IMG/VR virus record: IMGVR_UViG_3300031994_000011
Location: 96,001-160,000 of that record
Origin: a virus
Taxonomy: Duplodnaviria; Caudoviricetes
Length of the DNA stretch: 64,000 nt
Direction: 5' to 3' (one strand)
The notes under the pieces are model-generated. The model did not search any database, was not told the origin of the DNA, and was given only the letters and a program-made list of their open reading frames with translations. This document shows positions 1,030 to 55,424 of this stretch, piece by piece. The position numbers and the translations under genes are program-made. The stretch's first letter is position 1. Each line of letters opens with the position of its first letter.

Positions 1030-2266
1030 AAATTTTTTGGTGCTTAAAAAAGAAATTTTTTATGAAACTCGGAGCAAAATAGGTGAAATCTAAGTAAGCT
1101 TAATCACATAATCTTTGAGGATAAATCAAGGAGGTATGTGGTATGAAAACAAAAATTACATAGGATATTTTAGATATCTGGAAAACAAGATATCTCAATG
1201 GTGAAACTGCGCGTAATATATGGCAAGATTATAAAGATTTATGCGCAGAATGTACCGTTGAAAGGCACATTAAACAAATGGGAATTTCTCGCGGAAGAGG
1301 AGTTAAATATAACATTGAACAAAATAAAAATAATATTATACAAGAATATTTAACTTCTAATTATACAAGTCAAGAATTGGGTGAAAAATATAATTGCAAT
1401 GAACGTACAATTTGTGAAATATTAAAACAAGCGGGAATAGAGTTACACTCTGGAAAACGTTCATCTTGTAATGAAAAATATTTTGAAGTAATAGATTCGC
1501 CCAACAAAGCATATCTTTTAGGTTTTATTACTGCGGATGGAGCGATTATAGGAAAATATAATAGTAGCTGTGTGATTGAAGTGCATGAAAAAGATAAAGC
1601 TTTAATTGAATTCGCGCAAGCAGAAATTAATCCTAATGCAACTATTACTAAATGTATTAGTGAAAAAAAACATAATTATAGGATTAATTTTTCTAGCAAA
1701 AAGATATGTCAAGACTTAGAGAAATATGGAATTGTTCCAAATAAAAGTAAAATTATTGAAACAATTCCAGAACATTTAATTCCTGATAATTTATTACGTT
1801 ATTATTTTCGCGGCTTGATAGATGGAGATGGATGTATTCATATGAACGGCGGCATTTCTATTTACTCAGGGAGTGAAATATTTATAAAAAACGTACAAAA
1901 TTGTTTAATTAAAAAATTAAATGTATCAAGACTAAAGATATATCATGGTACTACATATTTTGTAAGTTGGACCAAAAAATCAGATAGATAGAAATTTTAT
2001 AATTTTCTATATAAAGATTGTCTAAATGATACATTTTATTATCCTCGAAAATATCAAAGATTATATGATAGCTTATATGATAACACCTAGATAACTGAAT
2101 AAATTACGAATAGGTTATTCAGTATTGTAGAGCATAGGCAGTGAATAAATATAATCTGCCCACGAGTGTTCCGCATCTAAACGTAAAGTCGTAGATGAAA
2201 ATATATGCCGACCTTATAGGAAACTATAAGAAGTAAAGGATAAAAAGCCTTTACGGTAACAAAGTG
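1030..2266 (+). mobile_element. Group I intron in dnaE
   Basis: 5' exon ends in T (GCT) and the intron ends in G (AAAGTG). Removal restores RKSIA|KKNPK. P7-like GCATA/TATGC pairing and 3' hairpins at 2130-2260; carries a LAGLIDADG ORF. Confidence 0.88.
1143..2102 (+). CDS. Intron-encoded double-motif LAGLIDADG homing endonuclease (3 in-frame TAG)
   Basis: Motifs AYLLGFITADG and YFRGLIDGDG. RBS GGAGGT upstream of ATG 1143. Reading through TAG at codon 7, 1989 and 2088 gives one ORF ending TAA 2102. Confidence 0.85.
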
Positions 2267-3856
2267 AAGAAAAATCCGAAAGAGTATGAAGAGCTTGAAA
2301 AGAAATTTTTTGAACGTGTAAAAGAGCAAAAATTGAGTGAAAATTTCTGTAATTATGTATGGAAAGTAGAAATCGCGTTAAGTAGAGGATATGGTTTTAA
2401 TGCGGCCCATACTTATTCGTATTCTATGGTTGCTTTACAAGAAATGAATTTAGCATATAAATATCCAATAATCTTTTGGAATACCGCAAACTTAATTGTA
2501 GATAGTGGTGGCACCTCAGAAATTGAATATGATGAAGATGGTGAAGCATCTTATATTGTAGAAAATGAAAGAGAAGAGAATGAAGAGGATAATGAAGAGC
2601 TTGAAGATTGGGAAGAAGAAAATGAAACCGAAGAAGATGTAAAAGAAGAAAAGAAAAAAGAAAAAACTAAAACTGTAGATTATGGTAAGGTTGCCGCGGC
2701 AATAGGTAAATTCAGTAATTATGGTATTAAAGTTGCCGCACCAGATATTAATTCTTCTTCTTTTACTTTTACTCCAGTTGTAAAAGACAATACGATTCTT
2801 TATGGATTACGAGGAATTACAAGACTGTCAACTTCTACAATTAAAGATATTATGATAAATCGACCCTATACTTCAATAGAAGACTTTCTTACAAAAGTAA
2901 AAGTTAATAAAGTTCAAATGATAAATTTAATTAAATGCGGAGCTTTTGATAAGTTAGAAAATCAGCCAAGGGAAGAAATCATGAAAAAGTATCTTTCAAG
3001 TATAGCTGATAAGAAACAGCGTTTAACTCTTCAAAACATGCAGATGTTAATCACAAAAGAACTTATTCCTGATGAAATGAGTTATTATGCTAAGTTATTC
3101 TTATTTAATAAATTTTTAAAGTCTCAAAAAACAAAAATAGAATATCAATTAAATGATAGCGCAATTAACTTTATATCAGAAAACTTTTCTGCTGATTATA
3201 TTAGTAATGGAACAAGCATTAGTGTGAAAACTTGGGACAACTTATATAGTCGCGCCATGGAGCCAATGAGAGTATATTTAAAAGAACATAAAGATGAAAT
3301 GCTAGAAGCATTAAATAATTCATTGTACAAAGAAGTTGAAGATAAATATGCTCAAGGAAATATAAGCCATTGGGAAATGGAATCTGTTTCATTCTATTCT
3401 CACGAGCATGAACTTATGAATGCTAGTAGGTATTATGATGACTTTTTTGATTTGCCAGAAGAGCCTGAAATTGATAATGTTTTTATGACAAAATCTGGTG
3501 ATGAAATAAAGATGTATAAGTTATCAAAGATAGTTGGAACAGTAATTGATAAAAGTAAAATGAAAAATACTATTACACTGCTCACGCCGACTGGAGTAAT
3601 AAATGTGAAAATATATAAAAATCAATTTGCCTTGTATGATAAACAGATATCTCAAATTGGAGAAGACGGTAAGAAGCATGTGATTGAACCTTCTTGGTTT
3701 AAACGAGGAACATTATTAATGATTCAAGGAATCAGAAGAGGCGCAGATTTTATTCCTAAAAAATATAAATCATCAATTTCTCCAGTAATATCAAAGATAA
3801 CTGAAGTATCAAATAATGGACAATTAAAATTTCAATTAGAACGAAAGGAGGTTTAA
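2267..3856 (+). CDS. dnaE: DNA polymerase III alpha, 3' exon
   Basis: GYGFNAAHTYSYS, PDINSS, ILYGLRGI, LIKCGAFD, C-terminal OB fold; no in-frame TAG. Confidence 0.93.
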   Translation, partial: KKNPKEYEELEKKFFERVKEQKLSENFCNYVWKVEIALSRGYGFNAAHTYSYSMVALQEMNLAYKYPIIFWNTANLIVDSGGTSEIEYDEDGEASYIVENEREENEEDNEELEDWEEENETEEDVKEEKKKEKTKTVDYGKVAAAIGKFSNYGIKVAAPDINSSSFTFTPVVKDNTILYGLRGITRLSTSTIKDIMINRPYTSIEDFLTKVKVNKVQMINLIKCGAFDKLENQPREEIMKKYLSSIADKKQRLTLQNMQMLITKELIPDEMSYYAKLFLFNKFLKSQKTKIEYQLNDSAINFISENFSADYISNGTSISVKTWDNLYSRAMEPMRVYLKEHKDEMLEALNNSLYKEVEDKYAQGNISHWEMESVSFYSHEHELMNASRYYDDFFDLPEEPEIDNVFMTKSGDEIKMYKLSKIVGTVIDKSKMKNTITLLTPTGVINVKIYKNQFALYDKQISQIGEDGKKHVIEPSWFKRGTLLMIQGIRRGADFIPKKYKSSISPVISKITEVSNNGQLKFQLERKEV

Positions 3857-3858
3857 TT

Positions 3859-4941
3859 ATGATAGGATTAGTAGATTATGATTTTCAGACTAATACTTCC
3901 ATGCGATTATGTCCTCCAAATTTAGAAATAATGAAATTAGCTAATTATTATAAATCAGAATAGAATAAATATTGTAGACTTATAAATTTAAATTAGCAAT
4001 AGCTTTCTGGATATGAAAAAATTTATTTTTTTAGTTAGAAAGATGGTACCCCAAAAATTCCCGAAGCATTCTTGCGCGCCGATAATGTAATTTTTGGCGG
4101 CACCGCTTTCACAAATGGTGAATATATTCCATTTGAAAATTAGATTATTTAGTATACAATGCCAAAAATAAATATCTATACTGAACTACTTCATCAGAAA
4201 TATAATAATGGAGTAAAGTCAAAAGTAATTTCACATTTTTTAGATGATACTTATTATAGAATGTATGCTAAAAATAATAAATTACCAGTGCCGCCCGTTA
4301 TGATGAGAAAAAGAGTTTATTTATACGATATTGATTTTTTCTACCCAGATTGGAAAGATATAATAGAAGATATATCAGCTAGGAAACCAGCTTCTATATT
4401 AAGAATACACCCTATATATTGTAATACGGTAACTCAATTTGGAGAAATTAGAAGCATATCTAAACTATCTCATAGTAATGATGTGATACTTGATTTAAAT
4501 GTTCCATTGGATGAAATTTATTATTTATTTAAAGTATATAAAAAAATGTTTTTAGCAAATATAACTAAAAATGTAAATGTATATTTGCCACTTGGTGGAA
4601 ATTTTAAAACGCCAATACAATATAGAAAAGATTTAATTTATAAATTAAATTTGTTATATTCTTTCTGGAGCAATAATATCATGATAAAAGTTAAATATAA
4701 AGAAGCTAACATTGGTATTGTTAATCCATTATCTAATTTAATGAAAAGAATTTAGCTTTGGGCAAATAATGATACAAAAGATATAAAAAGTATTAAGGAT
4801 GTCATTGATAGAAAAAATAAGAAAAAGCAATCTATTTAGATGTTAGAACTTGAAGAGTTTTTAAAACTTTATCCAACTAGTAAAACATTGTTTGACCAAA
4901 CTCTTACTTCTATTAGAAAAGGAGGCATATGGAAAATATGA
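3859..4941 (+). CDS. Hypothetical protein; N-terminus resembles phage radical-SAM-associated IGLVD..PNL..MKL family (TAG-recoded)
   Basis: MIGLVDYD...PPNLEIMKLANYYK...FGGTAF, in frame with ORF 4159-4755 when TAG is read through; ends TGA 4941; no CxxxCxxC seen. Confidence 0.65.
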
Positions 4942-5141: not shown

Positions 5142-5142
5142 T

Positions 5143-5373: not shown

Positions 5374-5377
5374 TTGT

Positions 5378-7988: not shown

Positions 7989-7990
7989 AT

Positions 7991-8051: not shown

Positions 8052-9023
8052 GTGGTTTATGTAATCATATTTCTTATAGCAATAATTATATTCCTCGGTT
8101 ATAGCTTATCAAAGAAACAAAAATTTTAGAAAGAGGAAAGAAATGAATATTATGCCGAGAATTAGAGGCTCGCCGCATAGCACGCTAAATTATAGGCAGA
8201 AATTTTAGCAGATATAGAAAATTGTAATAGAATACGATAGTAGATAACTAGATGTAATAAAGAATTTTCTACTCGTAGTTCTGAATTATAGAATTATTTT
8301 TATAATTTGCGCGCACAACGTAATAAAGATTTAGAAGATTAGTTTTTAACAAAAAGAAGAGAACAGCAAGAAATTCTTAATTTATAGATTTAGAAAATGA
8401 AAACCGCTTCTAACAATAAAGTTATTTAGATTGAATAGGCTACAAATAAAGCCATTTAGACTTTAAATAATTATGTTGCCTAGACAAATGAAAAAGTAAT
8501 TGAATGGGAAACACAATATAATAATTTATTATAGCCACTTAAAAGATTGTAGCAATAGAAAATGTAGCATTTATTTTATACAATTCAAATTCCAGAATAG
8601 TATCAAAAAGATATGTAGTATCTTTTAACTACCGTCGCGCCGCATGTTAATCACCCAGATATTATTAGTAAATTGATTTGGCAATAGTATGTAAAACCCT
8701 ATTTAGACGATACATTTAAGCGAATTGGCATAAAAGATTAGCCTGGAATTTATAAAATAACTTATATTTAGAACAATAAATGTTATGTTGGTAAAAGCAC
8801 TAATGTTAAAAAACGAATAGCTGATCATTTTAAAAGCGTTGTTGGAATACAATCAATTGCTGATCAAGCTGTTCATCATTAGATAAAAAATACTGGATTA
8901 TGGAACTGGATGATAGAAGTGATTGGATACTTTCCAAAAGAAGAACTTAGTGAAAAGTAGAAATTTTATATAAAGTAGTTCCAAGCTATTTAGTATGGAT
9001 TTAATAAAAATAGTGGAGGATAA
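8052..9023 (+). CDS. N-terminal TM helix + coiled coil + GIY-YIG nuclease (about 27 in-frame TAG)
   Basis: Hydrophobic VVYVIIFLIAIIIFLGY; GIYKIT...YVGKS...KR..DH...LSEK[TAG]KFYI...YGFN; GTG start after AAGGAG; TAA 9023. Invisible in the ORF track. Confidence 0.85.
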
Positions 9024-9807: not shown

Positions 9808-10620
9808 ATGAGTGAAAACATTACTAATTTTATGGATGGACTAAATGAAAATGAGTCTACTAGAGCAATTGGCGATCTAATTGAGCAAGTCATGGCCATT
9901 CCTGATGATACTTTGAATGATACTACGGCTGATATGATGAGCGGCATTATTAGCGGCGCACTAACTAATGCTGTTAAGCAAGAAGCTGTTAGAAATATTA
10001 TGGCTAACTTCGAAGAAAATTCTTATACCAGATCTCAAGCTATTGCCCTTGTAGATAATATGAAGAACGAATTTACTGAGCTACTTAATGGATTACAGCC
10101 TTCTAAATATAAGAGAATGATTCTTGATAATCTATTTAATGAATTTTACTCTATGTTTGATAAGGCTCTTGAAACTTATCATAACTATAATTTCAAGCTT
10201 CCCGTAAAGCTAGACGAGGGCGCAAGAATACCGACTTACGCACATGATACTGATGTGGCTGCAGATCTATATGCTGCTGATGATATGATTATTCCTGCGC
10301 ATTCTCTAAGTAATATGGTTAGAACTGGTGTCCATATTAGACTACCAGAAGGCTGGTGCGCATTTGTAGTACCTCGTTCTAGTATTGGTTCAAAGACTGG
10401 GCTACGGCTAAGCAATAGTCAGGGTGTAATTGATAATGATTATACCGGGCCAATTGGCGTCCTTTACGATAACATTTCTGATTCACCTTATACTATTAAA
10501 GCCGGAGATAGAATCGCGCAAATGTATGTTCTTCCTGTTTATCACTTTAAAGGCGTTGAAGTTGATACACTTGAGGAAACTGAGCGCGGCGAAGGCGGCT
10601 TTGGTTCTAGTGGTAAGTAA
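9808..10620 (+). CDS. dut: Trimeric dUTPase with ~125-aa N-terminal extension
   Basis: AADL, PRSS, GVIDNDYTG, GDRIAQ, RGEGGFGSSG motifs. Confidence 0.93.
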   Translation: MSENITNFMDGLNENESTRAIGDLIEQVMAIPDDTLNDTTADMMSGIISGALTNAVKQEAVRNIMANFEENSYTRSQAIALVDNMKNEFTELLNGLQPSKYKRMILDNLFNEFYSMFDKALETYHNYNFKLPVKLDEGARIPTYAHDTDVAADLYAADDMIIPAHSLSNMVRTGVHIRLPEGWCAFVVPRSSIGSKTGLRLSNSQGVIDNDYTGPIGVLYDNISDSPYTIKAGDRIAQMYVLPVYHFKGVEVDTLEETERGEGGFGSSGK

Positions 10621-11357
10621 TGGCAATAAACATTTATGTGGTTTCTAACGCACTTGAATAGCAAGGCTGGAAACTGATAAGTGATACTTATAAAAACTTA
10701 AATACTGAATTAGAAATGTAGTGTCCATAGGGACACAGGCAAATGATAACATACGGGGATTGGCGAAAGCATCCCGTATGTTAGATTTGTTTAGCTGGTG
10801 ACCCTTATAAGGTCAAAAAAAATAAGGTGCCAATCAAAAAGATTGACACTCAAAGAGTTTTAGCACTTGACGCAGCTACTGTAATAACTGGTTATGCTAT
10901 TTATGATGATGGTGCTTTAGTTAGTTATGGAACTTATAAAGTTTAGAAAAATTTAAGCACCGAAGTTAGAATAAATAAAATGAAAAAGTGGCTTGCGGCC
11001 GCTATTGAATAGTGGTAGCCTGATTTTATTGGATTATAGAATATTCAATTACAAGGGTTCAATGGCTATCAAAATGTTGAAATATATCGCGCGCTTGCTA
11101 ATCTACAAGGAGTTTTAATTGATACTATTTTCTAGGCTAGTGTAGACCATGATTTAGTTTATTCTACCTCATGGAGAAAGTATTGTAATGTTGGAGACGA
11201 TAAAGGCCGTGAGAATAAAAAGCGTGCAGCACAAGAAAAAGTAAAGTTATGGTATGGACAAGATTGTACTCAAGATGAAGCTGATGCTATTTGTATAGGA
11301 AAATATTTTGTTCATTTATTAAAAAATAATAAAAGTTCATGGGGTGAAGATATATGA
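10620..11357 (+). CDS. ruvC: RuvC-like Holliday junction resolvase with N-terminal Zn finger (TAG-recoded)
   Basis: CP[TAG]GH..C[TAG]IC, VLALDAA..TGYAI, PDFIGL[TAG]NIQ, SWRK, QDEADAICIG; start overlaps dut stop, ends TGA. Confidence 0.88.
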
Positions 11358-11740: not shown

Positions 11741-11773
11741 AAATAAAGAGCGGTCAAAAGGCCGCTCTTTATT
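11741..11773. terminator. Bidirectional intrinsic terminator between convergent operons
   Basis: AATAAAGAGCGG-TCAAAAGG-CCGCTCTTTATT with A/T-rich flanks. Confidence 0.85.
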
Positions 11774-14700
11774 ATTTATTGTACATTGAAATATTAAAAC
11801 TTGTAAATTTTAGTGTTCCCTCATCTGCTATTTGCAACATTAACATTACTTTATTTATATTTTGGGTACTCGTCGCTGTAAAAGAATGAATTTTTGTAGT
11901 AACGCCACTACGTATAGCTATTGATTCACTTCCAACACTTTTACGTAGAGTATTATTATAATATAATAATATTTTATATTTTAAAAATCCTTGATAGCCA
12001 CTTTGTTGATTAAAATCTATCTATATTGTATATTCTGTATCTTGTATTAAATTTTTCTCAATAGAAAGAGTTTCTGATAAGTTTCTAGTAGGATCTGCTT
12101 TATTTAATGTAACAATTCCTTCAAAATTTATATCAAATATTGTATTTAATTGTACCGTAGGAATCTATGATTCTGTAGCAGTTTCTACTGCTCCATTTTT
12201 AGTTTTTAAAGTATTACATAATACATTTCCTTCAGAATCAACCTTAAAAACAGTATCGCCAAATACATTAGTAAATTCTAGCTACCCTTTATTAGCTTTT
12301 ACTTTAAATTCTCCACCTGCAAGAGTTATAGCTCCTTGAGATCCAATACTAATTGAACCGCCACCTAAGTACATTGAAGAATCATCAGCCGTTAAGTAAA
12401 TAGAGTTCCCATTTAACGCTATTCCACTACTATCAAGTACTATTGCAGCATTATCATTCATTGCCTTTAATCCAGTAATATCTGACTAATTCACCCAATC
12501 AGATGTACCATTTATTCTATATTGAACATTATTCCCATTTTCTTGCTTTTCTACATAAGTCATTCCATTATCATCGATCCAATATATTTCAGTATTGTTT
12601 GCAATTGTAATACCAGAATTTGATCCAATGAGCATTGGATAATTACTGTCATTTCCCAACACAAGTCCATAAGTTTTTCCCTTCCATACTGTTAATCCAG
12701 TAAGTCCGTATGTTTTAATTGGAGCAAAATCTCTAACTATGTCTGCAGCATCTTCAGAAGCAGAGGTCGCATTAGCATTAGCAACTGTTAAACCATAATT
12801 AGCAATAGGTTCTGTATACTAAGTTGTTTGCTGATTTGTTGAAGGATCTTTCCAAACTTGTTTAAAACTAGTATAATATGTATAGTCACTAATATAAGTA
12901 GGAACTGAAGTTGACCACTAGCTCTAAGTGTTAGCAGTTGGTTTATTTGGCTTACTTGTAGCTAGCTTATATAGCTATGTTGAAGAAATTAAAGATATGC
13001 CTTGTGATCCTTGTGTAACAGCTCCTTGCTAACCATCATTAGGATAATATTCACAGCTATATTCAGTTTTTGTACTATTATTTTTATAAGTTATAGTTTT
13101 TTCAATCCATAAATATTTTCCTTTCTAAGGATTTCGTGTAAGGCTCCATCCACTGCTTGGCGGATTGGTAGAATTAGTAGAAACAGCATACCTATATGTT
13201 GGATCACCAACGGGTGTAATCGCATTTATATCACTTAAATCATAATTGCCATTAGTAGTAGTTATTTGTGTGCCAGATAATTGGAAGCTATTAGCAACAA
13301 TATCTCCAGCTATTGTTAATTTTCCAGGAGAATATTTTAAATTATTACCTAATCTAAAGGCATATTTCTAATTTGTATAAACAGGTGTCCAATGATTAGA
13401 AACAAAATCTAAATCGCCGCTATAATCATCATTACTTTTATACATCTTATGATCATAAAATACTATATCATCTGTATTGTAACTAGTGTTTGGTTGAAAA
13501 GAAGGAATGCCTGCTATCTATGTATCTAATATAAAATTATTAGTATTAATCCACATATTTGAATTTGAACCAATTATTATCCCATCATTACTAATTTTAA
13601 CAAAGCTACCATTACTTAATGAATCATTCATCGTTGTTGTACCAATCATTATACCAGCCTAATCCATCAAAATCAAATTTCTTTGTCCATTTACTTGTGT
13701 GGCTAAACCAATCGAATCTTTGGTAATGACAACGCCAGAAATAGAAGAACTATTTTTTAGCGTATTATAATTTATATTAGAAGTATAATTTTGAGTACTA
13801 TTACTAATTGTTCCAATATTTTGACCTACTGCTAAAACAATTTTATCAGAAGTAATCTAAACCGCTCCATTGTTAGAGTTACTATTAGATATATTTGATA
13901 CTCCTAATAAAATTTGATTTTTATCTATTGCAACAGTCGCGCCATCTAACGTTTCATATTCACCAGTATTATCATCTCTACTCATTTTTTTTGAATTTCC
14001 AGAATAAAAAACAATTTTACCTGTAGAGCCCATCCAAATACCTTGAGTAGGATGAAGTATTAAAGCAGAAGCTGTATTATCTCCATTACCAGTTACCAAC
14101 TAAATCGGCTAATGTGGTAACTATTTTGCTTTTTCTAAAAATCCATTTAAAATTTCTGCATTCTAAATATTATTGCCATTTAAAGTTGTTAAACTACTCC
14201 AAGCTCTGATTAAAATATCTCCTGCTATGTTAAAAACTCGTTCTAAATTTTGACTTTTTTTAACATTATCTTCAAATTTAAATGTCATATAATCATCTAA
14301 AGTTACTGGAGATATATCTTCATCATTTAATTCAGCTTTACTATTTAAAACTTTAAAAGAATCTGCAAAAATAGTTCCAGTAATATATAAATCACCACTA
14401 TTTGGATCGGCCCAAAATACTTCATCATTATTCCAGTTTCTTAATTTTAAACCATCCCAGCTTACCTAAACTCTAGTTACACTAGCTGGTAATACTTGAT
14501 ATGAATTATTTATATAAACATTTGCATCTTTTTCAGCAATTAAGAATAATCCATTTTCATTAAATTTTACATACTATAATTCGGTATATCCATCAGAATT
14601 ATTAAAAGAATTAAGATAATCATCAAAGTTATTATATTCATTTTCACTTTCATTTTCATTTTCATTATTACTAACTATACTATTCCATTTATTCTAAAGA

Positions 14701-39200: not shown

Positions 39201-40032
39201 CTGTTCCTTTTAACTAAGTTTGTAAAGTATTTTTTAAAATCTATATATGTGATTTTAACGTCTATGGTGTTAATCCACCCATAAAATTAGTTAATAACTA
39301 TTGCTGCCTATCAGTATTTCCAACTAATAATTTACTTAATCCAGATCCAACCATCGTCTGAATTTCTTCCATAGCTTTTTTATAACTGGCAGCAGCTCTT
39401 TCTACATTTTCTTGTAATGCCAAATTATTATCTTGTTTGGCTACTGCTGCGGCTTCAGCTTTCTATCGTCTATTTACATCAGCTTCAGCTTGCTTTAATT
39501 CTTTTTCTAAATTAGCAATTTTTTGCGCGGACTACTCAGCTTTAGTTCCTAATGCTGCGAGCATTTCTTGTGCAGTAGTAGTATCACCAATATTAAAGTT
39601 AATTTTCTTAAAACTATCAGCTAAATCTCCACCTGACTGAACGCCCTCTCTAATTGTCTTATCTATAAATTCATCAGCTTTTACTTTAGCTTCTTCTAAA
39701 TCTTTAACTATTGTTTTAAGGCCTTCACCAAAAGCAGACTATTTTAAATCCGGTAATTTCAATTGTTGGAATAACTAACCAATATTTGCAAGTCTTTGTC
39801 CCATTAAATCATATTTTTGAACAATACTCTATATTTGACTATTACTAGAAGCTTTCGGCATGGGATTTTTAGCTAATCGTTTTAAATCTCCTTCTGCTCC
39901 TTGAATTGCTTTAGTTAATTTTTTACCAATAATTGATCCTGCATCAACATTCTATAATGCACTTTTAAATTTCTATATACTAGCCTAATATCCACTTATT
40001 TTAGCAGTCATATCTAAAGTAATATTAGCCAT
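21298..40032 (-). CDS. Tape measure protein, ~6,244 aa, TAG-recoded
   Basis: TP901-type TMP core (AMSKTASSA, ESAENIGSAMKSIISR, GQFRDFDDV, AGNRQQSRF) and C-terminal G[TAG]LGPEL. 14 ORF-track fragments from 24487 to 38442 share the frame of ATG 40032 and TAA 21298. Confidence 0.85.
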
Positions 40033-40095: not shown

Positions 40096-40974
40096 TTATA
40101 TTTCATCGTCTATATTTTCATTAAGACGAGTAATCTCCAATATTAAACCCTTTCTACTATTCACCGTATTCTACGGCATTCCAATAATATTAAATGTAGC
40201 GACAGATGGGTCAGCCCTTTCTCCCAAGCGTAAGTTTATATCACTTACAACTCTTACTTTTGGCATGTAAATTAAATTTGTATAATTTATGCCATCGTTT
40301 TCATCCTTTGTATAAAATTTACCTTCAAGGGTGAATAATCCATTAAAACGTTCCTTCTATACAGAATAAATTAAAGCTTCGTCTGTATACTAATAATAAT
40401 AATCAACAATATATTCTTTTGTCTAGTCTGCAAGGTCTTTATGATTTTTATCTTTATAAACCCTTAGACAAGGACGCTCCACTGAATCATCAAAAGGATC
40501 TGATTCATTATGTATTATTTCTTCATACATTCTTCTCTGCACTACATCTCTCTAATATTCATAGACAAAAATTTTTTTCATATCATTACTGATTGGCTGA
40601 TGTTGTAAATGAAATAAACTTCCACCAGTCAAAACATTAGGCCCCTATCTCTTATGTATTAAAAGCGGTTCATCTTTTTTTCTCTAAATAACAGAAGCAC
40701 TAAGTAAAATTCCCATACTTATTGCAGACATTATACCCTCAGATAACTGAAATTGCACCTAAGATCTGTCCTACCAAATAACATGAGGAAAATTACCCCA
40801 GCCACCTCGCGCCATTATAGGAGAATTTCGTTCTGTTAAACTAGCAAAATTTATATTCTCAAAATACAACACAGGCTACTGAGCTTCAAGATACCGTGAA
40901 CCAAATTGCATAGGAACCTTCGCGCGCAAAACAACTTCATAAAGCTATTTTACTCCAAAATATTGATCAATCAA
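40096..40974 (-). CDS. Tail-tube-like paralog / minor tail protein, TAG-recoded
   Basis: FGVK[TAG]LYEV, ARGGWGN..VIW, TLEGKFY and GERADPS resemble the tail tube motifs YGIKEV, GGWGNP..WD, EGDPS. Confidence 0.7.
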
Positions 40975-41905: not shown

Positions 41906-42448
41906 TTATACGGAGCCTCCCTTTTCATGACACTTGTCATTACAATTAGTCGTTGAACCTTCAAAATATTTCCATTTAAAGCCTCCAGTGGTACGCCGTT
42001 TACCTTGACATACTTCACTAATATGTCTATGATTACAGCCAGTTTTTTTCCATGCTTCATAAGCAGATGAAAAAACTTCTAACTATTCTTCCTATAATGT
42101 CATTTGAACTATAGGACGAGCAATAAATTGCGTACTACTTTTTAATTTTTCAGGTGGTATATATTTTATATTTTCCTAATGAGTAACCCATTTTAAATTA
42201 TTTAACTAATTATTTTGTGGATTACCGTCAATATGATGAACTTCTAGCTATTCTTCATTTTCTCTCGGATCAAAAGCATGTAAAATTAAACGATGAACGC
42301 CAGTATTTATTACTTTTCCATTATCTGTAATTTTTACTCTTCTATACCCATCTCTGTCAATATAAGTTTTCATCATATGTATTTTTCTAACCAACCCCGT
42401 ATCAGAGACTTCATATTCAGAATCAGTATTTATAGCTTTCCATTGCAT
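41906..42448 (-). CDS. Intron-encoded NUMOD4-HNH-NUMOD1 homing endonuclease (TAG-recoded)
   Basis: WKAI..YEVSDTG..VHRLI..VHHIDGNPQNN.LNNLKWVT..EN..CQGKRRTTGGFKWKY; continuous only if TAG is sense. Confidence 0.88.
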
Positions 42449-42505
42449 AATCCTTACTCCTTTTATAATATTTTGCTTGGCTGCTGATTGCCTATTCTAT
42501 GTTAA

Positions 42506-42534
42506 ATTATAACATAAATCTTATTCGTTGTCAA
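42506..42534 (-). promoter_or_regulatory. Consensus sigma-A promoter inside intron, upstream of HNH gene
   Basis: TTGACA-17-TATAAT with TG extension. Confidence 0.75.
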
Positions 42535-42632
42535 ACATTCATAGTGCTTCCCCTATTGTAGTGAATAAGCTTTAAGGTGTTCCAGCAATTAAAGAGGTTT
42601 TTTTATGTTGGAGCCATCCATCCCGATTACAG

Positions 42633-42815
42633 ACCCCAACCGCCCTGGGCTGCGGTATTTTCAGCAGTAGTTTCAATAGTAGAAACTTTTAGAGTATCTA
42701 GGAATAGCACAATGTCTCCAGCATAAACGCCAGCTGCAGCGTCTGCTTCAAGAGCTTCAAAATATACATTGGCAACCTATTTAATACCATATTTATCAAA
42801 AATATTTACAGCCAT
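42633..42815 (-). CDS. Major tail (tube) protein, exon 1 (single TAG at codon 13)
   Basis: MAVNIFDKYGIK[TAG]VANVYF...LFLDTLKVSTIE...AQGGWG; RBS GGAGGT. Confidence 0.85.
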
Positions 42816-42836
42816 AATAAAATACCTCCAAATAAA

Positions 42837-43616
42837 TCATGATTTATTAGAATCCACAATTGATCGCATCCAATGCTTCAATTGATTCTTTTTCATTTTT
42901 GCCCCAGCAAGAGCAGCACGATTATTAATATCAAACTGGTCTCGCCAACCCATACGTCTGAGCTGATCATGAAAGGCATAGTAAGTTATATTCCATATAT
43001 TATCCATGTTTAAGCCACAGTTATTTATAGTAATGCTTCCGATGAGGTCAGAAAACTTTAAGTCGCTCTTCTCCCTCGCGGCTTGTTTAGCCTTCGCCTT
43101 ACGTACCTTCTACCTATTTTGTTTCATTCTTTCTTTAAGCCGAACTACTTCAGGAGGGTCATCTTTATTGATGATTATCTACTCCTCATCAACGTCTAGA
43201 AAATAGGCACGGCTAATAAGCCGTCGAAGGTCGTAAAATTTTTCCTCTGTTAATATGTGTTTTTCTTCTATGGGTCCAACTATAATTTGTGCGGGATCTA
43301 AAGAAAAATTTACATCCTAATGTATAAAAAATTTAAAAGCCTATTTTAAAGTTTCATTAGACATTTTATCCATTGCCGTTAACATAAGTAAATACTGAAA
43401 ATCAGTAACCTAACTTAATATTTTAGCCATCTATGGCTATTTATTCCAATCTGGGATTGGCTTTGTAGCTGTAATTGCGCCAAGTAATAATTGAAATTTA
43501 CTATAACCTAAATCCACTATCTAACCCAATGTAGCGGAATAAACAGCACAAATATCGTCTAATAAAACAGGCGAACCTTTTTGAAACTTTAAAATCATAT
43601 CATCAGTTAAATTCAT
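42837..43616 (-). CDS. Putative tail assembly chaperone, TAG-recoded
   Basis: 259-aa ORF with C-terminal IWNITYYAFHDQL..AALAGAK; position in tail module. Confidence 0.6.
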
Positions 43617-44118
43617 TGATTTTATACCTCATAGTATAGCCGCCAATCCAAGGAGAAAGAGCTAAATTATCTGCTCTATAAAATTGTAAATTACCTATAC
43701 CGGATAATTTAGCTTGATTAAACATTATATCAATCTATTGCATTATTAAATAAGGTCGTAATGACCTAGCATTTAATAGCCACTCATCATAAGGACAAGC
43801 AATATCAAATCTTACTGTAGAAACCTTAAACTATGGATTGATTTGATTAACGACAAAATCATCAAAAATAGCCGTAACATACGACATTTTTTCTGTACTA
43901 TCATCAAATATTTTAGGAACGATTAAAATTTGTTTATTTATAAGTTCGGCACCATCAACATTAGGTTGCTACTTACCATTACACATTTCTTTTAATGGAT
44001 CTCTTGTTTGATACTTTAATAGCCTACATAATGTTTGATTTGACATTAATTTATCAGCTATTTTAAAAGTATTATCACCCATTACAGCAAATCTTCTTTG
44101 CCCACTTACATCTCCCAT
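43603..44118 (-). CDS. Putative tail terminator/completion protein, TAG-recoded
   Basis: LCRLLKY..INP[TAG]FK..FDIAC..LRPYLIMQ[TAG]ID..GIGNLQF. Confidence 0.65.
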
Positions 44119-44134: not shown

Positions 44135-45370
44135 TTACCACAATGGAATAATAGAAATAACTTTCGTATAAGTATTTCCATTATATTCCGCAATTAATGT
44201 TATATCTCCAAGCTAATTTTCATCATTAGCTTGAATTTTACAGGCATGTTTTATCTATTCAGTTGATACATTATCTTTAGTCTAAATAGAAACAAATTTT
44301 GCTAATGCAGTATTTTCTAATGAGAAAGTAACTATTGAATTTTCATCTATAGCTGGCTTTCCAACCAATTTATAAATAGCGGTTCTATTCAATCTAATTG
44401 AATTATTTCCCTAAATATGTCCAAAAAATTCTTCGGTTGGCGCGCCAACTTTTACTGTAATAGTATTTTTAATAGATGGAAAATCTTTTAATTGAACTGT
44501 AATAGTAGTAGTCCCCTATCTCAATGCCTTTAATTTATCATTCTCGATAGTAATGATACTTTTATCATCAGGAATAAACTAATATTCTCCCGAATAAACT
44601 TGTCCATTCTTCATTAGTGTAAAAGAAGGAATGACAAACTAGCCAATCTAAAAAACTTGAGGTTCCTATGAAGTAATTATCTCATAAGAAGCAATATTAT
44701 TGGTATCTGCTAAATTATTCTATACATCATCATAGATACTATTAATCTTACCCTCTGTTAGAGAAAGATAAATAATTCCAGGCACACTAGTATGATCATA
44801 CTACACAACAGTCCAAGATTCTTCTTCGACAATAAAATTTGTAGCTCTATTTATAGGATAACGCGGCATTAAAATCTAAGCATATTTGTTTGGTTGTGGT
44901 GTAATCAGCGAGTTCCACGTTCTGAAATTTCCTTTAATTTTAGAATCTAAAGAGCTAACAAAATAGCTCCAGGATTGTTGAACGTGACCATCACCATCAA
45001 CCCATTTCATTAGATAATTACATCTTACTATCCAAAAAGTTCTATAAGTCCCATTAACTTTTTTTTCTTCTTGGACAAGTATCCATTTCTAAATCTATCC
45101 ATTATCTAATTTCCAATTCATAATGTCTCCAACATTAATAGGAATCTAATTACTAACATTTAGAAACATTATTTTCTAATGCTATTTATCCTTATTAGTT
45201 AATATTATTCCATCAAAATATATTCCACGCTACACAGACAAATGACGAACGGTGTGAGGAGATTCGCTCATCCATTTTATAAATGAACGAATTCCGCCAT
45301 TACGTATTCTTTCAGCTGTAGTAGTTCCTAAATGATTTATCCTAGAATAATAAGCATCAAGATAGTTCAT
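44135..45370 (-). CDS. Putative head closure/neck protein with Ig-like C-terminus, TAG-recoded
   Basis: 411-aa ORF, FWIVRCNYLMKW..YDHTSVPGIIYLSL; position between adaptor and tail terminator. Confidence 0.6.
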
Positions 45371-48298: not shown

Positions 48299-49597
48299 TT
48301 AGTTTTTACGATATTTTTTCATGAGTAAAGAAAATTGAGATTCTTCGGGTGTAAGAACGGGAACTTGCTTTACTTCAGATTTTTTATTATTAATTTGCCG
48401 ATGGGCAAAAATAATAGCTAATTTATTTTCTAATTCTTCGTAAGAAAATTCATCAACCTTTTCTTTAACTGGACTAATTTCTTCTTCAGAGAGAATATTA
48501 TTATAATCTTCAATTAAACTATTCTTACGATCTTTCTAAGCAACAGCCGCTGCAGCCTCATAAGACTGTAAGCTGTTCTATAGTTCAGTAATTTTGTTGC
48601 GAAGAGATTCTAGTTCTTTATTCGTATCTTGCTAAAATTTTGAAGCATTTTGGATTTGCTCTTGCGCTTCATTAAATTTAACTTGTAATTCATTATAGGA
48701 AGTTTGTAACTCATTATATTGCTGTTGTAGTTTTTCAAATTCAGAAGGAGCAGCTTCTTCAACAGGAGCGGGCTCTTCAACAGCTTCTTCTACTTGCGCG
48801 CCGTCGGCAGAAAATTCAGTTACTTCTTCTTCTTTCTTTTCTTCATTAACTTCAAATTCTGTTACGGTTTCAGTAGTTTCATTTACTTCGGGAGTTACTT
48901 CAGTTTCAACAACTTCCTGATTTTCATTCTCATTCATTGGTTGTTCTCCTCCCTCTTTGTTTTGTTCAGCTTCTTCTACTTTTGCTTTTAAATCAAACAA
49001 GAGTGAAGAAAACTTCTAATATTGATTATCATATTTTTCATCATTTTTAGAGAAAAAAGATGAAACAGAAAAACATGGTTCATGCTCTCCAATAATACAA
49101 AAACCTAACATTTTTGCGGTCGTATAAACAAAGTATTCTTCGTTCTAAATTAAAGTCCAATCACCCTGAATAGAAGAAGGATCTAATTCCATACTTTGAT
49201 TTTGTCCCATAATTTTTTGTGCCTATTCATAGTAATCTGTAAAAAGAATTACTGAAAACACAGCATATTCACGGGTCACGCCGTCAGTGTCCTAAAAAGG
49301 TTCCCACCCAATAAAATTCTCTACATAGCCATACCCTTTGGCTAAGTTAGGACCGCTATGACTAGCCCAACTTTTTGTAGAGGGATCGAAGAATCCTACT
49401 ACTGGAGTGTTGCCTTTTGTAGCGCTTTCAATGAGTTGCTAAGCAACACTCTCAGTAATATAAGATCCATTACGATTCGCATATTTGGTAAAAACCCTAA
49501 CTTTTAAGCGCCCAATGTTAGGTGTTTCTTCTGAAATACCTTGAAATGGAGAAGACACAATAACGCTATCAAAATATATTGGAATTTGTTTTTCCAT
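48299..49597 (-). CDS. Prohead protease fused to acidic coiled-coil scaffold, TAG-recoded
   Basis: NRNGSYIT..PVVG..QSMEL..GFCIIG..EPCF then E/Q-rich coiled coil; in frame with ORF 48632-49000. Confidence 0.8.
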
Positions 49598-49611: not shown

Positions 49612-51159
49612 TTATCCAGCTGATTCTATATTAGTTTGAGTTTTTTCACTTTTCTACTAATCAGAAAGCTATGGTCGTCCACCTTTATCATCAGATGATT
49701 GTTTTGCGACTACTGTTGTTTTTTGTCCCTGGTTACTCTTTTCTTCATCAGCAATAGTATTACCAGAAGTAGTATAAGAAGATTGCAAAGGTACCATTTT
49801 TAAAGACATTTCAAGGAACTCATTTTCAAAATTCATCAAACTTAATTGATCTCTCTGTTTCATTCCTAAAGCAACACCAGCGAACATTTTAGAATAACCA
49901 TATTGCGCACCGCGGAAATAAGAAGATTGTAACTAATCTCTATTAAATACTGTTATAGGAAGTATCTAAAAATCAAATGATAAATTAGTTCTTGCGAACT
50001 TATCATTTATATGAAATTTTATCCAACTTTCATAAATATTTAAATAAGCAGACATTAAAGTCTAATCTTTCTTTATGGCATAAGCAAGAGAAGAGCTTCC
50101 ATCTGGATTAAATAAAATTCTACCTCTTCCTAAAGCATCCCATGTATTCGTTTTATACTTTTCTATTCTATTTGTCGATTGCGTTGCCGCGCTACTATCC
50201 TGTAAACTCTATAAATTTGTTTCTCCAAAAGTAGTTAAAACATCTACGGTATCCTAATCTGCTAGCATCTAAGCAACAGAAGCATGTATTTCAGTTACTT
50301 CTTCAAGAGGAAAAACAAGCTAACCATCACCATCAACTGGCATTCTTTGAATTAGTAATTTCCTTAATTCATTTTCATCTCTTGTTTCTTCTCTTTTAAC
50401 TGCGTCATCTAATTTTTTTAAAGCAGGTAGACTAGCAATAAGTAAAGGAGTCTGATCATTGGTAAAGCTAAAGCTGATTCCGCCACTAGCCGCGGGCAAC
50501 ATAACCCATGGGTCTATTAGTTTATTTCCTTTTTTCTTCCAAGCTTTCCATGCTTTTTGAATTTCTTCTGGAAAAGAAGCAATTGCTTCTGCTCTTGCTT
50601 TTTCATCAGTAATAGTTTCAAAGTATAATATATTAAATTCAAGAATATTTAAGTTATTAAAATCCTTAAATCTTGTCCGACAATATTGAAGAGGTAAATC
50701 TTGAATTGTAACTTTATCGCCATCTGTTCTTAAAATTCCATTATAAATACCATTTTTCAACCACTATTTAGTAATTCTTGTAAAAGTATTCGGAACATCA
50801 AGTTTATCAACAAAATTACAAGCGTTATAGAAAGCTTTGGTTATTTGTGTCTTAGATCCTTTCCCTTCCTAATATAGTGGAATAACCACAGTATCATAGG
50901 TTGGTAAACATGCTAAAAAATCTATATTATTTCTATATAAGCTATTTGTTCTATAATAATATCTAGATAATTCTCTTAAAGAATCTAAATCGCCAGAGCG
51001 AATAATTTCTTGAATTTCCTATAATGTAAAGTCAGAGTGAACAGGATCTGCTCTATGATATCCCCATCTACTATATGCTCCAGGACTAATCGGCGCACGG
51101 CTAACCCTCAGACGAGAGCGAAAATTAGCAAAATCGTGTGAGGGTTTCTCTTTACCCAT
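49612..51159 (-). CDS. Portal protein, 515 aa, TAG-recoded
   Basis: Between TerL and protease; fragments 49669 and 50320 in the same frame; PLQSSYTTSG..GGRP tail. Confidence 0.82.
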
Positions 51160-51164
51160 AACAA

Positions 51165-51942
51165 TCACCCCCTTCTTTCTTTTTTATTTTTCTTTGGTGT
51201 ATAAAACGTATATTCACTATAGTTTTTCTTCTTCGACATCTTTAGTGCCTTATCTTCATAGTACTTTACCCTATAAAGAGCATACTATAACGCTGAGAAG
51301 CGGTCCTTTTCTACGGAACGTGAAATACGTTCTATTTTAAATTGGTTCTGCGCACCAGTTGGTTTAAGTTTCAAATTATTTAATTCATCCATTAGTCGTG
51401 ATGTCATTATATAAGGCATTAAAAAAATATGTCTATCTACACTAGTCATATTTTTACCTTTTTTTGTCTTTAATAATTTATCTTTTATTACATTTTCATT
51501 CGCTAAGAAAGCGACCGAACCGTTATTTATTTGGGAGAAGAAGTTCGAATGTATTAAGTCATCATTACTTGAACCAGCTTTTATGTCATAGATTATTCCA
51601 TTTAAAGAAGGCCAAGGCTCATTGCTCTAGACTTTTTTCTAAGGTGGTAAATGATGATCATTATTAAAGGCATAATATGATGGAAATTGCTATCCAGTTT
51701 TAAAATCTATAGATGGCAGAACCATAGCATCTAATAGACCAATACCGGGACCGTTACCGTCAATCACGATTTCGCGCGGATTATATAGTTGAATAAGTTT
51801 TTTTAGCCTTGGAGCTTGTTCCGTAATATAGTTCGCGCCATGAATAACTTCAGTATAAATAACTTTCTTCTTAAAGCTGGTTTTTTCGGGCATTACTTTA
51901 ATAACCATAACAGCGGTATTCGCAGCGTATCTCGCAACGTCT
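51165..51942 (-). CDS. terL: Terminase large subunit, exon 2 (nuclease domain)
   Basis: DVAR..VIDGNGPG..KDRFSAL[TAG]YAL. Confidence 0.9.
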
Positions 51943-52218
51943 CATTTATATTCCATTAAATTCGCTACATTTAATGCGTTCTTTTATGAACTGCTATATG
52001 TTTCCATATAGATTAGACTATATCTTCATCTTATTAAAAGATGCTCCCTTTTTCAGACACCAAACGCTTGTATCTTACATAATAGTCGTTGAACCTTTTC
52101 GTAAAGAAAAATCTATAAAATTCTTTACAAACTTGGCTGCGGATTACCTTTTAATACGGCTTCCCGCAATTTAAGGAGTTATTGCCCTGTCATCACTGGC
52201 AGGCGGGGCAAGCTGTTC
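51943..52218 (-). mobile_element. ORF-less group I intron (276 nt) in terL
   Basis: Exon GGGGU pairs with GCCCC; AAATTGCGGGAA, AATCCGCAGCCAAG, GTTCAACGACTA and AAGATATAGTCT core elements; ends in G; splicing restores YLIGV|DVAR. Confidence 0.92.
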
Positions 52219-53237
52219 ACCCCTATCAGATAAAATGTGTTTTTATTAACAGGATTCTCTTGTGCTTTTTTTTCACATTTTAATAAAGTTCTTCTTTTTG
52301 CTAATTTTTTAGAGTCAAGCCAAGCCTATTTATTATTACCAGTCCATAGACTTAAACTTTCACGAGAAAAGCTTTCATCAGACACGGTAGCTGAATAACG
52401 CTGGTCCATCATGGTTGCTCTATCCAAAAGACCATAATGAAGAGGAACTTCATAACTTAAACCCCATACAAAATACTATCTTGGGCGCAAAACAGCATTT
52501 ACAGCACACTAAATTAACTTACTATACATGAATACTGTCTTTTCGCGCGCGGTAGTAATAAAAATTTGAGGAGAAGTAGGTTCTTCTGGATTAAGTGTTC
52601 CATCAACCTATCTACGAGCAACGTTCATTTGAGGAAGCAAAACTTCCGTGTAATCTGTTTCTTCTATTGTCGCGGCCTACTCTAAAATACCGCATGTCGC
52701 GCGCAAACCACGGCTCGTGTCTTTTGAAACAACCGTTATATTACTACCATTTTTAAAATGTAATTCATAATAGTTACCACTCTTTTTCTAACCAGTTTTA
52801 CCATCATCAAGGCGAGTAGTAAGCTATTTTCTTAATAAAGGCCAATGACGAAAAATTTCTTCAAATTTAGCTTCAGCAATTTTTATTACTGTACCTTTTA
52901 CGTCAGAGGCGATGAATATGTTAGAGTTAGGAAGTAGGACGGCGCGCACAACAGCACTAAGATAAGCGGTAAAAGACTTGGATGTCGCGCGTGTAGCAGT
53001 CCAAAAATGGTATCTGTAACGCATTGATGCGCGCAAAGCAATTCGTTGAAAAAGAAACAAATGAAAATGCTTAGCATCACTAGAATCTTGAATTTCATCA
53101 AGAAAGCAATCAGGATAAAGAAGCCAATAGTTTAAATATTTTGTAAATAACTATTTATTAGCATCTAAAAAAGATTTCGTTAATACTACGCCTTTCTAAA
53201 TTGGTATTCCATTTCTGTAAGCTACTTCTTCAGCCAT
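52219..53237 (-). CDS. terL: Terminase large subunit, exon 1 (ATPase domain)
   Basis: FQRIALR, Walker-A-like TRATSKS, SRGLRATCGILE[TAG] Walker B, IFITTA coupling motif; exons sum to 599 codons. Confidence 0.9.
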
Positions 53238-54166
53238 TATACCAATTCACCTGCCAACTCATCCTATCCCTAATAATCAACATCGGCAGTACTGTCAAAC
53301 TAGACAGCTTCGTTCTCAATTTCTTCAAGGCGCTAAGTAATGTTGAAGCGTTCTTTTCTATCCTCAACTTGCTATGCGAAATTACCTTCATTTACTACTA
53401 ATCTCTTTAAATAATTCTGTATATTCTGCATACAAAAATCAATATCATCTTTAGGCTAAGAAACCCATTTAGGATGCCAACCAAGTTTTCCATAATAAAC
53501 CATTAGTTCACCTACTGACTCAAAGTCAGCGGCATTTTTCGCGTTAGAGGCTTCAAACTTGGCTATTTTAATAATGTTATCGCGGGCATCCATATCCTTT
53601 TTTATATCATGCCCCTCCCGCAAGCCTCTCTTTATGCGTAACTAAATTTCGCATAGGTCGCGCGCGTACTATTGTAAAATAGGAGTAGAAACGTTTTGCG
53701 TAGCAATAATCTTATTATAGTAATCCTAAAGAAAAAGCAATTCTTCCTTTGTATATGTGGAGGACCAAGTTTTTTTTAGTCGCGCAATTTTAGCACTTGA
53801 AAGAGCTTCAATTTCTTCATCTATTGTACCTTCTTCGCGCGCTAAGCGCCAACGCTAATTTTCATCGCTCCATTGTAGGGCTTGATAATGCTAATCTAGT
53901 AACGTATTAAAGTAGGCCGTTAAGGTATGATCTTTATGTATTTTATAAAGTGATGTCCATTTATTTAAATCAAATGGCACATCAAGATATCTGCATAACC
54001 TATCTACCTATCCTAAGTTTTCTTGGTCTATCATTACTTCTAAGCAGGAAGTACAAATTAACGATCTATGGGAAGGAAAAAATTTGGAAGGCGTATATTG
54101 AAATTCACTTTCTGGCTTCTATGACTTGCATCGCATGCAACGTCGGGTCTTTGGAACGTTTGTCAT
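53237..54166 (-). CDS. Putative terminase small subunit with N-terminal Zn finger, TAG-recoded
   Basis: CMRC..CTSC, YLDVPF, LKKTW..LLFL[TAG]DYY; stop overlaps terL start. Confidence 0.6.
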
Positions 54167-55424
54167 ACTTGTTCTGCACCCCCCGTTCTATTCTTCTCTT
54201 CTTCTCGCATTCCTTACACACAGAAGAGAAGTGGTCTTTTCTACTATTATTTACACCAAAGAAGACAGTATCGCGTGGAAACACGCGGCCGCATCGAATA
54301 CAAGCTTTCTGCTCTTCTATTGGTGTTTCTATAAGTAAGCGATTCTTCTTTGCCGTAATAGCAATTGCGTTTGGTATTTCGCGCGCAAATATGTTACTTA
54401 AGTAGTTTTCGTTGTACTTTAGGCCAAAGCGCGCGAGCAGTTCCTCTATTATTTCTGGATATACCATTTTTTTAATTTTCATATCAAGCAAGGCATTACG
54501 TATAGGCGAGAAATTACACATCTAGCGGTAGCGCTAAAAGTCAAAAATTAGGGTGCGGCCGTAGGTCTAAAATTTTTCATGCATGTATTCATAAAGTGCC
54601 TGATAATTATTTATCAAGGCTCTTATGTGGGCTGGGTTCTCCCAGTCAAATGTATGTTGGCGCACTACCCATTTTATCATCCCGTCCTACCTTACCTCAT
54701 AGTCCTTTAAATTTTTTGAAATTGAGCTAAGTAGCGCGTCATCTACTTTTTGCTGCCACTACTATTGTGTTACCCAATAAAAGGAATCAGCGGTCCAATC
54801 TACGAATTGGGCGCGAGGCTTGTCAGCCGCCATAAAGTGTATGGTGGGCTTGTAGGCATCTTTAAGATAGTATTGGTGCTTACGCAGGTCCGCTAACTGA
54901 TGTTTTAATTGATAAAGGCGATAGGAGTCAGGTAGAAAGTAGGTGTTCTCGTCAGGCGGCAGCTTCCCTTCATTTATGGCTACTAACTTTTCTATGCGCT
55001 CAATAGATTGCCAAAGGTCGCGCATACCGGGGATGTCGCTGTCGCCCGGATCTAGTAACTCGCCTGTCTTCTTATCAAATTTGGGATGATTTATTACGGG
55101 CTTGGGATTGGTGTAGGGCCGCCGTATGTTCGCCGGATGTAGGTCTTGCTGGTTTGTTGAAGGATTCTAAAGGAGCTAATCTAGGGAAAGGTTTTTGTCG
55201 TCTTTTTTCTTGAAGGTTGCGTAACGTTTATGGCCATCTGTTACCTATCCTCGTTGGACAGCATTATAACCTTCTTCATCTTTTCCGTATAGTATGTAGG
55301 ACCCCATTTGGTCTAACTAGTCTGGGGTGGGCGGTTTTTCTAATTGACTTAAAATTTGTTTTACAGCAGCCACGCGGTCGGTGTCTCGCTGGATGCTGTA
55401 ATCCAGGGTGTATGCTTTTTTCAA
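54105..55424 (-). CDS. First gene of virion operon, hypothetical protein with C-terminal Zn finger, TAG-recoded
   Basis: TTG start after GGAGG; fragments 54762 and 54105 in frame; CIRC..CKEC. Confidence 0.7.

Follow-up and report, generated by a model that had tools for sequence, protein, structure and literature searches.

The question raised by this locus, a 64,000-nucleotide stretch of DNA from a phage (Duplodnaviria; Caudoviricetes), is which amino acid is read at the amber (TAG) codons that stand in frame in many of its genes. The stretch (hereafter the window; coordinates refer to it unless given as genome positions) covers bases 96,001-160,000 of one 171,958-bp contig, IMG/VR record IMGVR_UViG_3300031994_000011, which is listed there as a phage genome that is complete and bounded by direct terminal repeats; DNA of this phage was present in sheep and cattle gut runs from many studies. 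Stop-codon recoding in phages has been thought to be limited to TAG read as glutamine (Gln, Q) and TGA read as tryptophan (Trp), or as glycine with code-25 hosts, while a prediction made from the letters of the window alone (the original prediction) held that TAG encodes glutamate (Glu, E) and not glutamine. Our results support the reading of UAG as glutamate by this phage, as judged from the residues that its relatives carry at these positions and from the type of suppressor tRNA that it encodes.

When TAG was read through, the number of open reading frames (ORFs) of at least 150 amino acids in the window doubled, from 19 under the bacterial code to 38, in agreement with the earlier observation that the breaks in these genes are TAG and their ends TAA or TGA. 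In-frame TAGs number 727 in the whole genome and occur in 82 of its 166 ORFs, the share of the window being 446 TAGs across 41 ORFs. TGA ends 47 of the 166 ORFs, TAG none, and TAA terminates the other 119, indicating that UAA is not read as Glu here, unlike in the UAR=Glu codes (NCBI tables 30 and 31). Among 61 orthologous gene ends TAG was found at none in this phage versus six in G006, a complete 181-kb relative using the standard code (L- and G-numbers are labels of the individual contigs or records compared, P-numbers those of database proteins). TAG density is bimodal, at about 2-8% of codons in genes for the virion (3-8%), for packaging and for some nucleases, against near nil in long early blocks, which makes TAG ~100 times rarer in early than in late genes; genome positions 76.8-99.9 kb (~7,000 codons) hold only 2 TAGs outside a homing endonuclease, as compared with 3.4% in late genes. 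In terms of composition, Glu decreases from 7.5% to 4.9% while TAG climbs to 4.5% of codons, with Gln constant near 3%, and in the TAG-rich, late genes TAG represents ~39% of GAA+GAG+TAG. Having in-frame TAG in its late genes, no TAG terminators and a CUA tRNA of its own, the phage groups with the stop-codon-recoded phages.

The recoded proteins are mostly without a Pfam or PDB match, making a tally over Pfam columns impossible, and comparison within the family and across whole genomes was used in its place. A set of 23 IMG/VR relatives was found by means of the portal protein (57-71% identity), to which 37 metagenome contigs were added; all ORFs were aligned to the relatives' loci with TAG written as X, and every phage ORF was aligned to G006. 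Against the 23 relatives, the TAGs of the phage faced E 933 times, D 193 times and Q 80 times, matching the substitution profile of the phage's own Glu codons. At the 88 TAG sites covered by at least five relatives the majority residue was E at 61, D at 11 and Q at 5, and wherever at least 80% of the relatives agreed the residue was E (34 of 34 sites). The alignments also provided an internal control, in which the in-frame TAGs of the relatives faced Q of this phage 281 times and E 61 times.

The alignment to G006 allowed TAG to be compared with codons of known meaning. A total of 416 TAG sites faced E in 40.3% of cases, followed by D (10.3%), N (7.2%), K (6.7%) and Q (6.7%); the corresponding values were E 50.9%, D 9.7% and Q 4.9% for 1763 true E sites, and Q 41.8% and E 11.0% for 857 true Q sites. 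Using log-likelihoods (in natural-log units) built on substitution frequencies from the same phage-G006 alignments, Glu was ahead of Gln by 208 and of Asp by 239. In conserved contexts TAG faced E at 63.6% of sites, versus 61.5% for true E, and the signal was present on both strands and in every gene class, including a PhoH-like protein encoded outside the window (9 of 17 sites), a RuvC-like resolvase (6 of 9 sites in G006) and the virion genes, with mostly E. The evolutionary estimate of an E/Q mixture at TAG was 0.92 E (interval 0.85-0.98). At the level of sequence, these comparisons show that TAG is under the same selective constraint as GAA and GAG, catalytic glutamates included.

The original prediction relied on the TAG codons of GILE-TAG (52677-52679), PDFIGL-TAG-NIQ (11037-11039), LSEK-TAG-KFYI (8958-8960), G-TAG-LGPEL (23557-23559) and YGIK-TAG-V (42777-42779), and at all five positions an in-frame TAG was found in the context described. 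The first three had been proposed to occupy residues that must be Glu, which the relatives bear out: all 23 relatives have E at the TAG of the terminase Walker B motif (52677-52679), and so do three of three cultured standard-code phages (Geobacillus virus E3, Enterococcus phage H1 and Bacillus phage vB_BcoS-136), while the TAGs of the RuvC-like gene (11037-11039, where G006 reads G-V-E-N-I-Q) and of the GIY-YIG gene (8958-8960) face E in G006. In the PhoH-like protein a TAG stands where PDB 3b85 has the E of its DEAQN Walker B motif; this site is E in G006 and in 119 of 120 database homologs, the lone Q being a mis-translated TAG, and six of the 17 TAG columns of this protein are invariant or nearly invariant E among those 120 homologs. 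Replacement of the catalytic Glu of Walker B by Gln abolishes ATP hydrolysis, and the presence of TAG at these glutamates therefore points to real insertion of Glu, and not mere tolerance. Neither Gln-dominated TAG columns nor Q at the catalytic sites of non-recoded homologs, named in the original prediction as evidence against Glu, were observed. Other motifs were only partly as described. FSAL-TAG-YAL does belong to the terminase (51285-51287), while INP-TAG-FK (43831) and RKTIF-TAG-CMN (45405), also assigned to it, are real but lie in virion genes; the tape-measure motif G-TAG-LGPEL has its TAG at 23557, but its status as a conserved motif is unproven, alignment of this site (23557-23559) to G006 being impossible.

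A CUA tRNA and its 1-72 pair had been singled out by the original prediction as informative. The genome contains a single CUA tRNA, outside the window at genome positions 50570-50643 (found by ARAGORN; Rfam tRNA score 55.3 bits), as the first gene of a tRNA operon in a TAG-free early region, behind a TTGACT-17-TATAAT promoter of consensus sigma-70 type. This tRNA displays G1·U72, A73, U11-A24, U13·G22 and A46, together with a 9-nt D loop and a 4-nt variable loop, UAAC, that lacks nucleotide 47. According to the tRNA-Glu and tRNA-Gln identity rules used here (PMC9976931), U11-A24 and U13·G22 with A46 and no nucleotide 47 make up the augmented D-helix of bacterial tRNA-Glu, and the Gln determinants U1-A72, G73, G3-C70 and G10 are missing; the anticodon departs from the YUC + A37 of tRNA-Glu, since U35 and A37 are retained and C36 is changed to A. 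Bacterial genomes were scanned for the D arm and the UAAC loop of the CUA tRNA, leaving the anticodon unconstrained, and all 153 matching tRNAs carried Glu anticodons (TTC 101, CTC 52); the closest to the phage tRNA were of the tRNA-Glu(CUC) kind, and G1·U72 with A73 was common to 32 of the 153. The scan shows, on sequence matches, that the body of the CUA tRNA is that of a bacterial tRNA-Glu, and the molecule looks like a tRNA-Glu(CUC) with a single C36-to-A change. By contrast, U1-A72 and G73 are present in the tRNA-Gln(UUG) that the phage encodes in this operon and in the CUA tRNAs belonging to two TAG=Gln relatives, and no CUA tRNA was found in the standard-code relative. No phage glutamyl-tRNA synthetase (GluRS), for which the original prediction advised looking, nor any other class Ic synthetase, nor a release factor was found in the phage genome, and charging would therefore depend on a host enzyme.

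Several further observations concern these tRNAs and their surroundings. The suppressors of the two TAG=Gln relatives (L061:1158-1243 and L062:1547-1631, in the records behind L025 and L027) are 85-86 nt long and contain an unusually long stretch past the anticodon stem, possibly an inserted sequence or an extended variable arm. In the phage genome, tRNA genes at positions 50648-50902, 55952-56101, 60816-60933 and 62101-62234 display inserts of 27-75 nt in or beside the anticodon loop (ARAGORN intron mode), the tRNA-Gln(UUG) directly downstream of the CUA tRNA having one of 69 nt, and a tRNA-like gene at 57724-57796 shows an odd anticodon loop. The suppressor operon is surrounded by an RNA-repair-type cluster (genome positions 45.6-52 kb; L003:7642-14017) whose genes, all free of TAG, encode a cREC_REC receiver, a metallophosphoesterase, an RNA ligase, a DUF2828/DUF7788 (Ro-like) protein and a PTH2 peptidyl-tRNA hydrolase. 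Finally, the 429-kb megaphage record IMGVR_UViG_3300025030_000039 (L064/G010, 24% GC) carries a 69-nt CUA tRNA (L064:7768-7836) with the same Glu-type build, including G1·U72, A73 and the UAAC loop; no clear in-frame use of TAG was detected across 400 kb of this genome, and no recoding is claimed for it.

The relatives were also typed individually. Six are without in-frame TAG and use the standard code, most read TAG as Gln, and L021 and L228 read it as Glu; judging from the aligned genes, the standard, TAG=Gln (most members) and TAG=Glu codes are therefore all present in one phage family. The contigs L021, L228 and L274-L278, obtained from other samples, add at least five groups to this phage in the TAG=Glu state. 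The in-frame TAGs of L274-L278 face E in G006, and within the group TAG swaps mainly with GAA and GAG. These same contigs encode TAG where the database proteins P0001 (94% identical), P0002 and P0005 show Q, precisely at invariant-E columns that include the PhoH Walker B glutamate, and the three proteins could be reproduced only by a 'with_TAG=Q' translation; their Q is there because gene callers applied code 15, and is thus not evidence for Gln. In a tree of PhoH the four TAG=Glu sequences formed one clade (Shimodaira-Hasegawa-like approximate likelihood ratio test, 81), and a single origin of the TAG=Glu code is likely. The 12 of 45 TAG positions that the phage has in common with L021 were considered as proof of common descent and discarded, this number being equal to that expected from independent placement on Glu sites. 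No tRNA was found on the TAG=Glu contigs L021, L228 and L274-L278, all of which are fragments.

Taken together, we propose that UAG is read as Glu by means of the phage tRNA, charged by the GluRS of a standard-code host whose decoding is switched during infection, an explanation to which, as a whole, we give a probability of roughly 0.8. The host GluRS would recognize the CUA tRNA through its augmented D-helix and missing nucleotide 47. Amidotransferases depend on U1-A72, and are counteracted by G1-C72 together with an extra base in the D loop (PMC9976931); with G1·U72 and an extra D-loop nucleotide in place of U1-A72, the phage tRNA could avoid both amidation to Gln by GatCAB and direct charging with Gln by the glutaminyl-tRNA synthetase (GlnRS). 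Charging by GluRS without amidation by GatCAB was also the mechanism inferred in the original prediction. Early expression of the tRNA would then switch a cell using the standard code to TAG=Glu, as has been proposed for TAG=Gln phages, and the new code would have arisen inside a family otherwise TAG=Gln or standard. That the host belongs to the Bacillota is supported only indirectly, all the cultured phages with a related portal or terminase being phages of Bacillota.

Some observations weigh against this explanation. The GluRS of Escherichia coli depends strongly on U34, U35, C36 and A37 (PMC9976931), and positions 34 and 36 are altered in the CUA tRNA, so charging by GluRS is not guaranteed. 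The alignments indicate the residue required by selection and not the one inserted by the ribosome, which leaves room for a minor share of Gln. In addition, an ORF with 195 TAGs requires almost no competition from release factor 1 (RF1), and no phage factor that would provide for this was found. Finally, the tree of the portal module does not make the phage and L021 sisters, although a constraint making them so was not rejected (approximately unbiased test, p = 0.10).

The long ORF also favors a host-matched code, in which the phage would read TAG as Glu only since its host, presumably without RF1, does so too. Code-4 and code-25 phages are examples of such codes; translation of 195 TAGs would be easier where RF1 is absent, and the lack of a release factor or an aminoacyl-tRNA synthetase in the phage would be consistent with this. 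However, TAG is nearly absent from the early blocks, as expected if the uninfected host cannot read it; a strong promoter precedes the CUA tRNA that the phage itself encodes, its sister phages are TAG=Gln or standard, and 401 Bacillota genomes sampled by a pattern scan yielded chance-level matches only and no Glu-type CUA tRNA, the small sample making this the weak point of the argument. We regard a host-matched code, although a serious alternative, as unlikely. The absence of TAG terminators was discarded as a clue to the code of the host, since a TAG=Gln relative likewise ends none of 55 genes with TAG. Less probable still is a decoding of TAG as a mixture of Glu and Gln, tolerated by selection at most sites, which could arise if GatCAB amidated part of the tRNA or if the host GlnRS, an enzyme prone to accept CUA anticodons, charged part of it. 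E. coli often glutaminylates amber suppressors (cited in Borges et al., bioRxiv 10.1101/2021.08.26.457843), the phage tRNA retains U35 and A37, its weak G1·U72 pair could open as GlnRS needs, and about 5-7% of TAG sites face Q; this share, however, equals that at true E sites, TAG occupies catalytic glutamates of Walker B, and the determinants of tRNA-Gln listed above are lacking.

To the ordinary code 15 (TAG=Gln), with the Glu signal as an alignment artefact, we give almost no weight. The database proteins of this phage group show Q at every TAG and most relatives truly are TAG=Gln, but the pipeline that yields E for this phage returned Q when applied to those relatives, Q lies 208 log-likelihood units below E, and the deposited Q are products of TAG=Q gene callers; moreover, the TAG columns are dominated by E and the suppressor has neither U1-A72 nor G73. 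In a sheep metatranscriptome run the contigs were letter-identical to the phage over TAG-bearing genes, which argues against editing of UAG, although carry-over of DNA is possible. Four observations led to the rejection of an artefact or of RNA editing: a dedicated tRNA is encoded, the early genes lack TAG, other samples supplied independent contigs, and those of the RNA run are identical.

We consider it probable, then, that a clade of ruminant-gut phages has its own UAG=Glu code, with a suppressor derived from tRNA-Glu(CUC) that hijacks the host GluRS and evades the Gln pathway, while UAG=Gln or no recoding is used independently by its sister clades. UAG=Glu would then be a code so far undescribed in viruses, and a new assignment among stop-codon-recoded phages. 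If so, phages that capture a stop codon are not bound to Gln or Trp as the amino acid assigned to it. The usual reason given for that limit is that GlnRS and the tryptophanyl-tRNA synthetase naturally accept suppressor tRNAs; a TAG=Glu phage would point to a second route, using GluRS and a tRNA-Glu scaffold, and a family with three code states would offer a natural experiment on code change and on the choice of amino acid. Current pipelines would be mistranslating about 1.5% of the residues in these genomes from Glu to Gln: gene callers offer only code 15, and public proteins would show Gln for Glu even at catalytic residues, misleading annotation, structure prediction and metaproteomic searches. 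The CUA tRNA might also find use as a natural amber suppressor inserting Glu.

The recoded genes of the window are found on both strands. On the + strand, a LAGLIDADG homing-endonuclease-like gene (1143-2102; Pfam LAGLIDADG_3, E=2.3e-11) has 3 TAGs and is open only with TAG as a sense codon, and a 360-aa gene (3859-4941) has 8, at which G006 carries E four times, D twice and S and A once each. The GIY-YIG homing-endonuclease-like gene (8052-9023; Pfam GIY-YIG, E=2.5e-6; PHROG homing endonuclease) contains 27 TAGs, or 8.4% of its codons, and 26 of these sites compared with G006 gave E at 9, K at 4, D and N at 3 each and Q at 2. The gene of the RuvC-like Holliday junction resolvase (10620-11357; PHROG 827/159) has 9 TAGs.

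On the - strand, a 2545-aa late gene (11772-19409) has 96 TAGs, of which 59 were aligned to G006 with E as the top residue (25, Q 6), and a giant virion or tail gene of 6244 aa (21298-40032) includes the 195 TAGs already mentioned; this gene is poorly conserved, and at 149 of its sites G006 shows E 32, D 19, N 18, K 13 and Q 11. A virion structural protein gene follows (40096-40974; PHROG 2729), with 11 TAGs, nine of them facing E in G006. Three further virion genes (42837-43616, 43603-44118 and 44135-45370) with 8, 3 and 18 TAGs have columns of mostly E, and a 432-aa gene of the head module (48299-49597) contains 8 TAGs. The portal protein gene (49612-51168; PHROG 2739 portal, E=1.6e-68), with 13 TAGs, was the query that retrieved the relatives.

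The putative large terminase gene, also on the - strand, is split in two. Its ATPase half (52179-53237) has 9 TAGs, including that of Walker B; the original prediction had called this ORF the large terminase, a name to which no Pfam or PDB match was found but which agrees with its tblastn matches to annotated large or ATPase terminase subunits of cultured Bacillota phages. The downstream half (51165-51908) has 4 TAGs, among them that of FSAL-TAG-YAL, and its TAG sites 73, 94 and 208 are E in 17-23 relatives. The two halves are separated by a 276-nt insert (51943-52218), probably an intron, which is absent, with a joint at 51942/52219, from a metatranscriptome contig otherwise 100% identical and from DNA contigs of other strains. 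Bases 51941-52000 have 85-92% identity to short stretches in the Bacillus jumbo phages AR9 and PBS1 and in Clostridioides phages, those of AR9 and PBS1 lying within or near their terminase gene; the insert is probably a mobile group I intron. A comparable arrangement was noticed at 41906-42836, where a 69-aa fragment with a tail tube or sheath-like start (42627-42836) is followed by an HNH endonuclease ORF (41906-42448), suggesting that a homing element interrupts a further virion gene.

The final recoded gene of the block (54105-55439, - strand) encodes 444 aa with a sigma-factor-like PHROG match and an HNH-like C-terminus, and has 11 TAGs. Beyond it lies a higher-GC region of many small genes nearly without TAG (55689-64000), marking the edge of the recoded late block, and GC climbs from about 0.31 to 0.44 across window positions 56000-64000. 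Outside the window, at genome positions 54168-55244 (L003:16168-17244), a 358-aa PurZ-like protein with a partial Pfam Adenylsucc_synt match is encoded, which matches PHROG 1211 '2-aminooxy adenylosuccinate synthetase' (E=2e-36); adenine may be replaced by 2-aminoadenine in the DNA of this phage.

Among the closest systems for comparison are the sister phages themselves (such as the records behind L025 and L027, TAG=Gln, and L010, standard), which are alike in having a genome of 140-190 kb, the same gene order, tRNA clusters, a ruminant gut source and a portal identity of 57-71%, and differ in that their TAG faces Gln or is absent in frame and in that their CUA tRNAs are of the U1-A72/G73 type. 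Among phages coded differently from their host, the only changes observed by Borges et al. (bioRxiv 10.1101/2021.08.26.457843) were TAG to Gln and TGA to Trp; TAG=Gln was validated by proteomics by Peters et al. 2022 (PMC9523058), and a Lak-phage paper remarked on an occasional TAG-E alignment and concluded Q. The openly accessible literature yielded no phage or bacterium reported to read TAG as Glu, in line with the statement of the original prediction that no phage example was known, and in the literature found UAG=Glu was restricted to some protists. The code-15 gut phages (crAss-like, Lak, Garnet and Agate among others; Borges et al., bioRxiv 10.1101/2021.08.26.457843; PMC9523058) resemble the present one in the concentration of TAG in late, structural and lysis genes, in early genes compatible with the standard code, in the absence of TAG terminators, in the possession of a CUA tRNA and in their animal gut origin; there, however, Gln is carried on a tRNA-Gln body, while here Glu would be carried on a tRNA-Glu body. 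With the peritrich ciliates (NCBI table 30) and Blastocrithidia nonstop (UAR=Glu; PMC12153298) the phage would share the reading of UAG as Glu by a cognate tRNA-Glu with a changed anticodon, and the same holds for Oligohymenophorea sp. PL0344 (UAG=Glu and UAA=Lys; PMC10553269). These protist codes are cellular and eukaryotic, and UAA is mostly reassigned in them too, whereas the code described here is viral and keeps TAA as its main terminator; unlike the nuclear codes of protists, it is probably switched on during infection.

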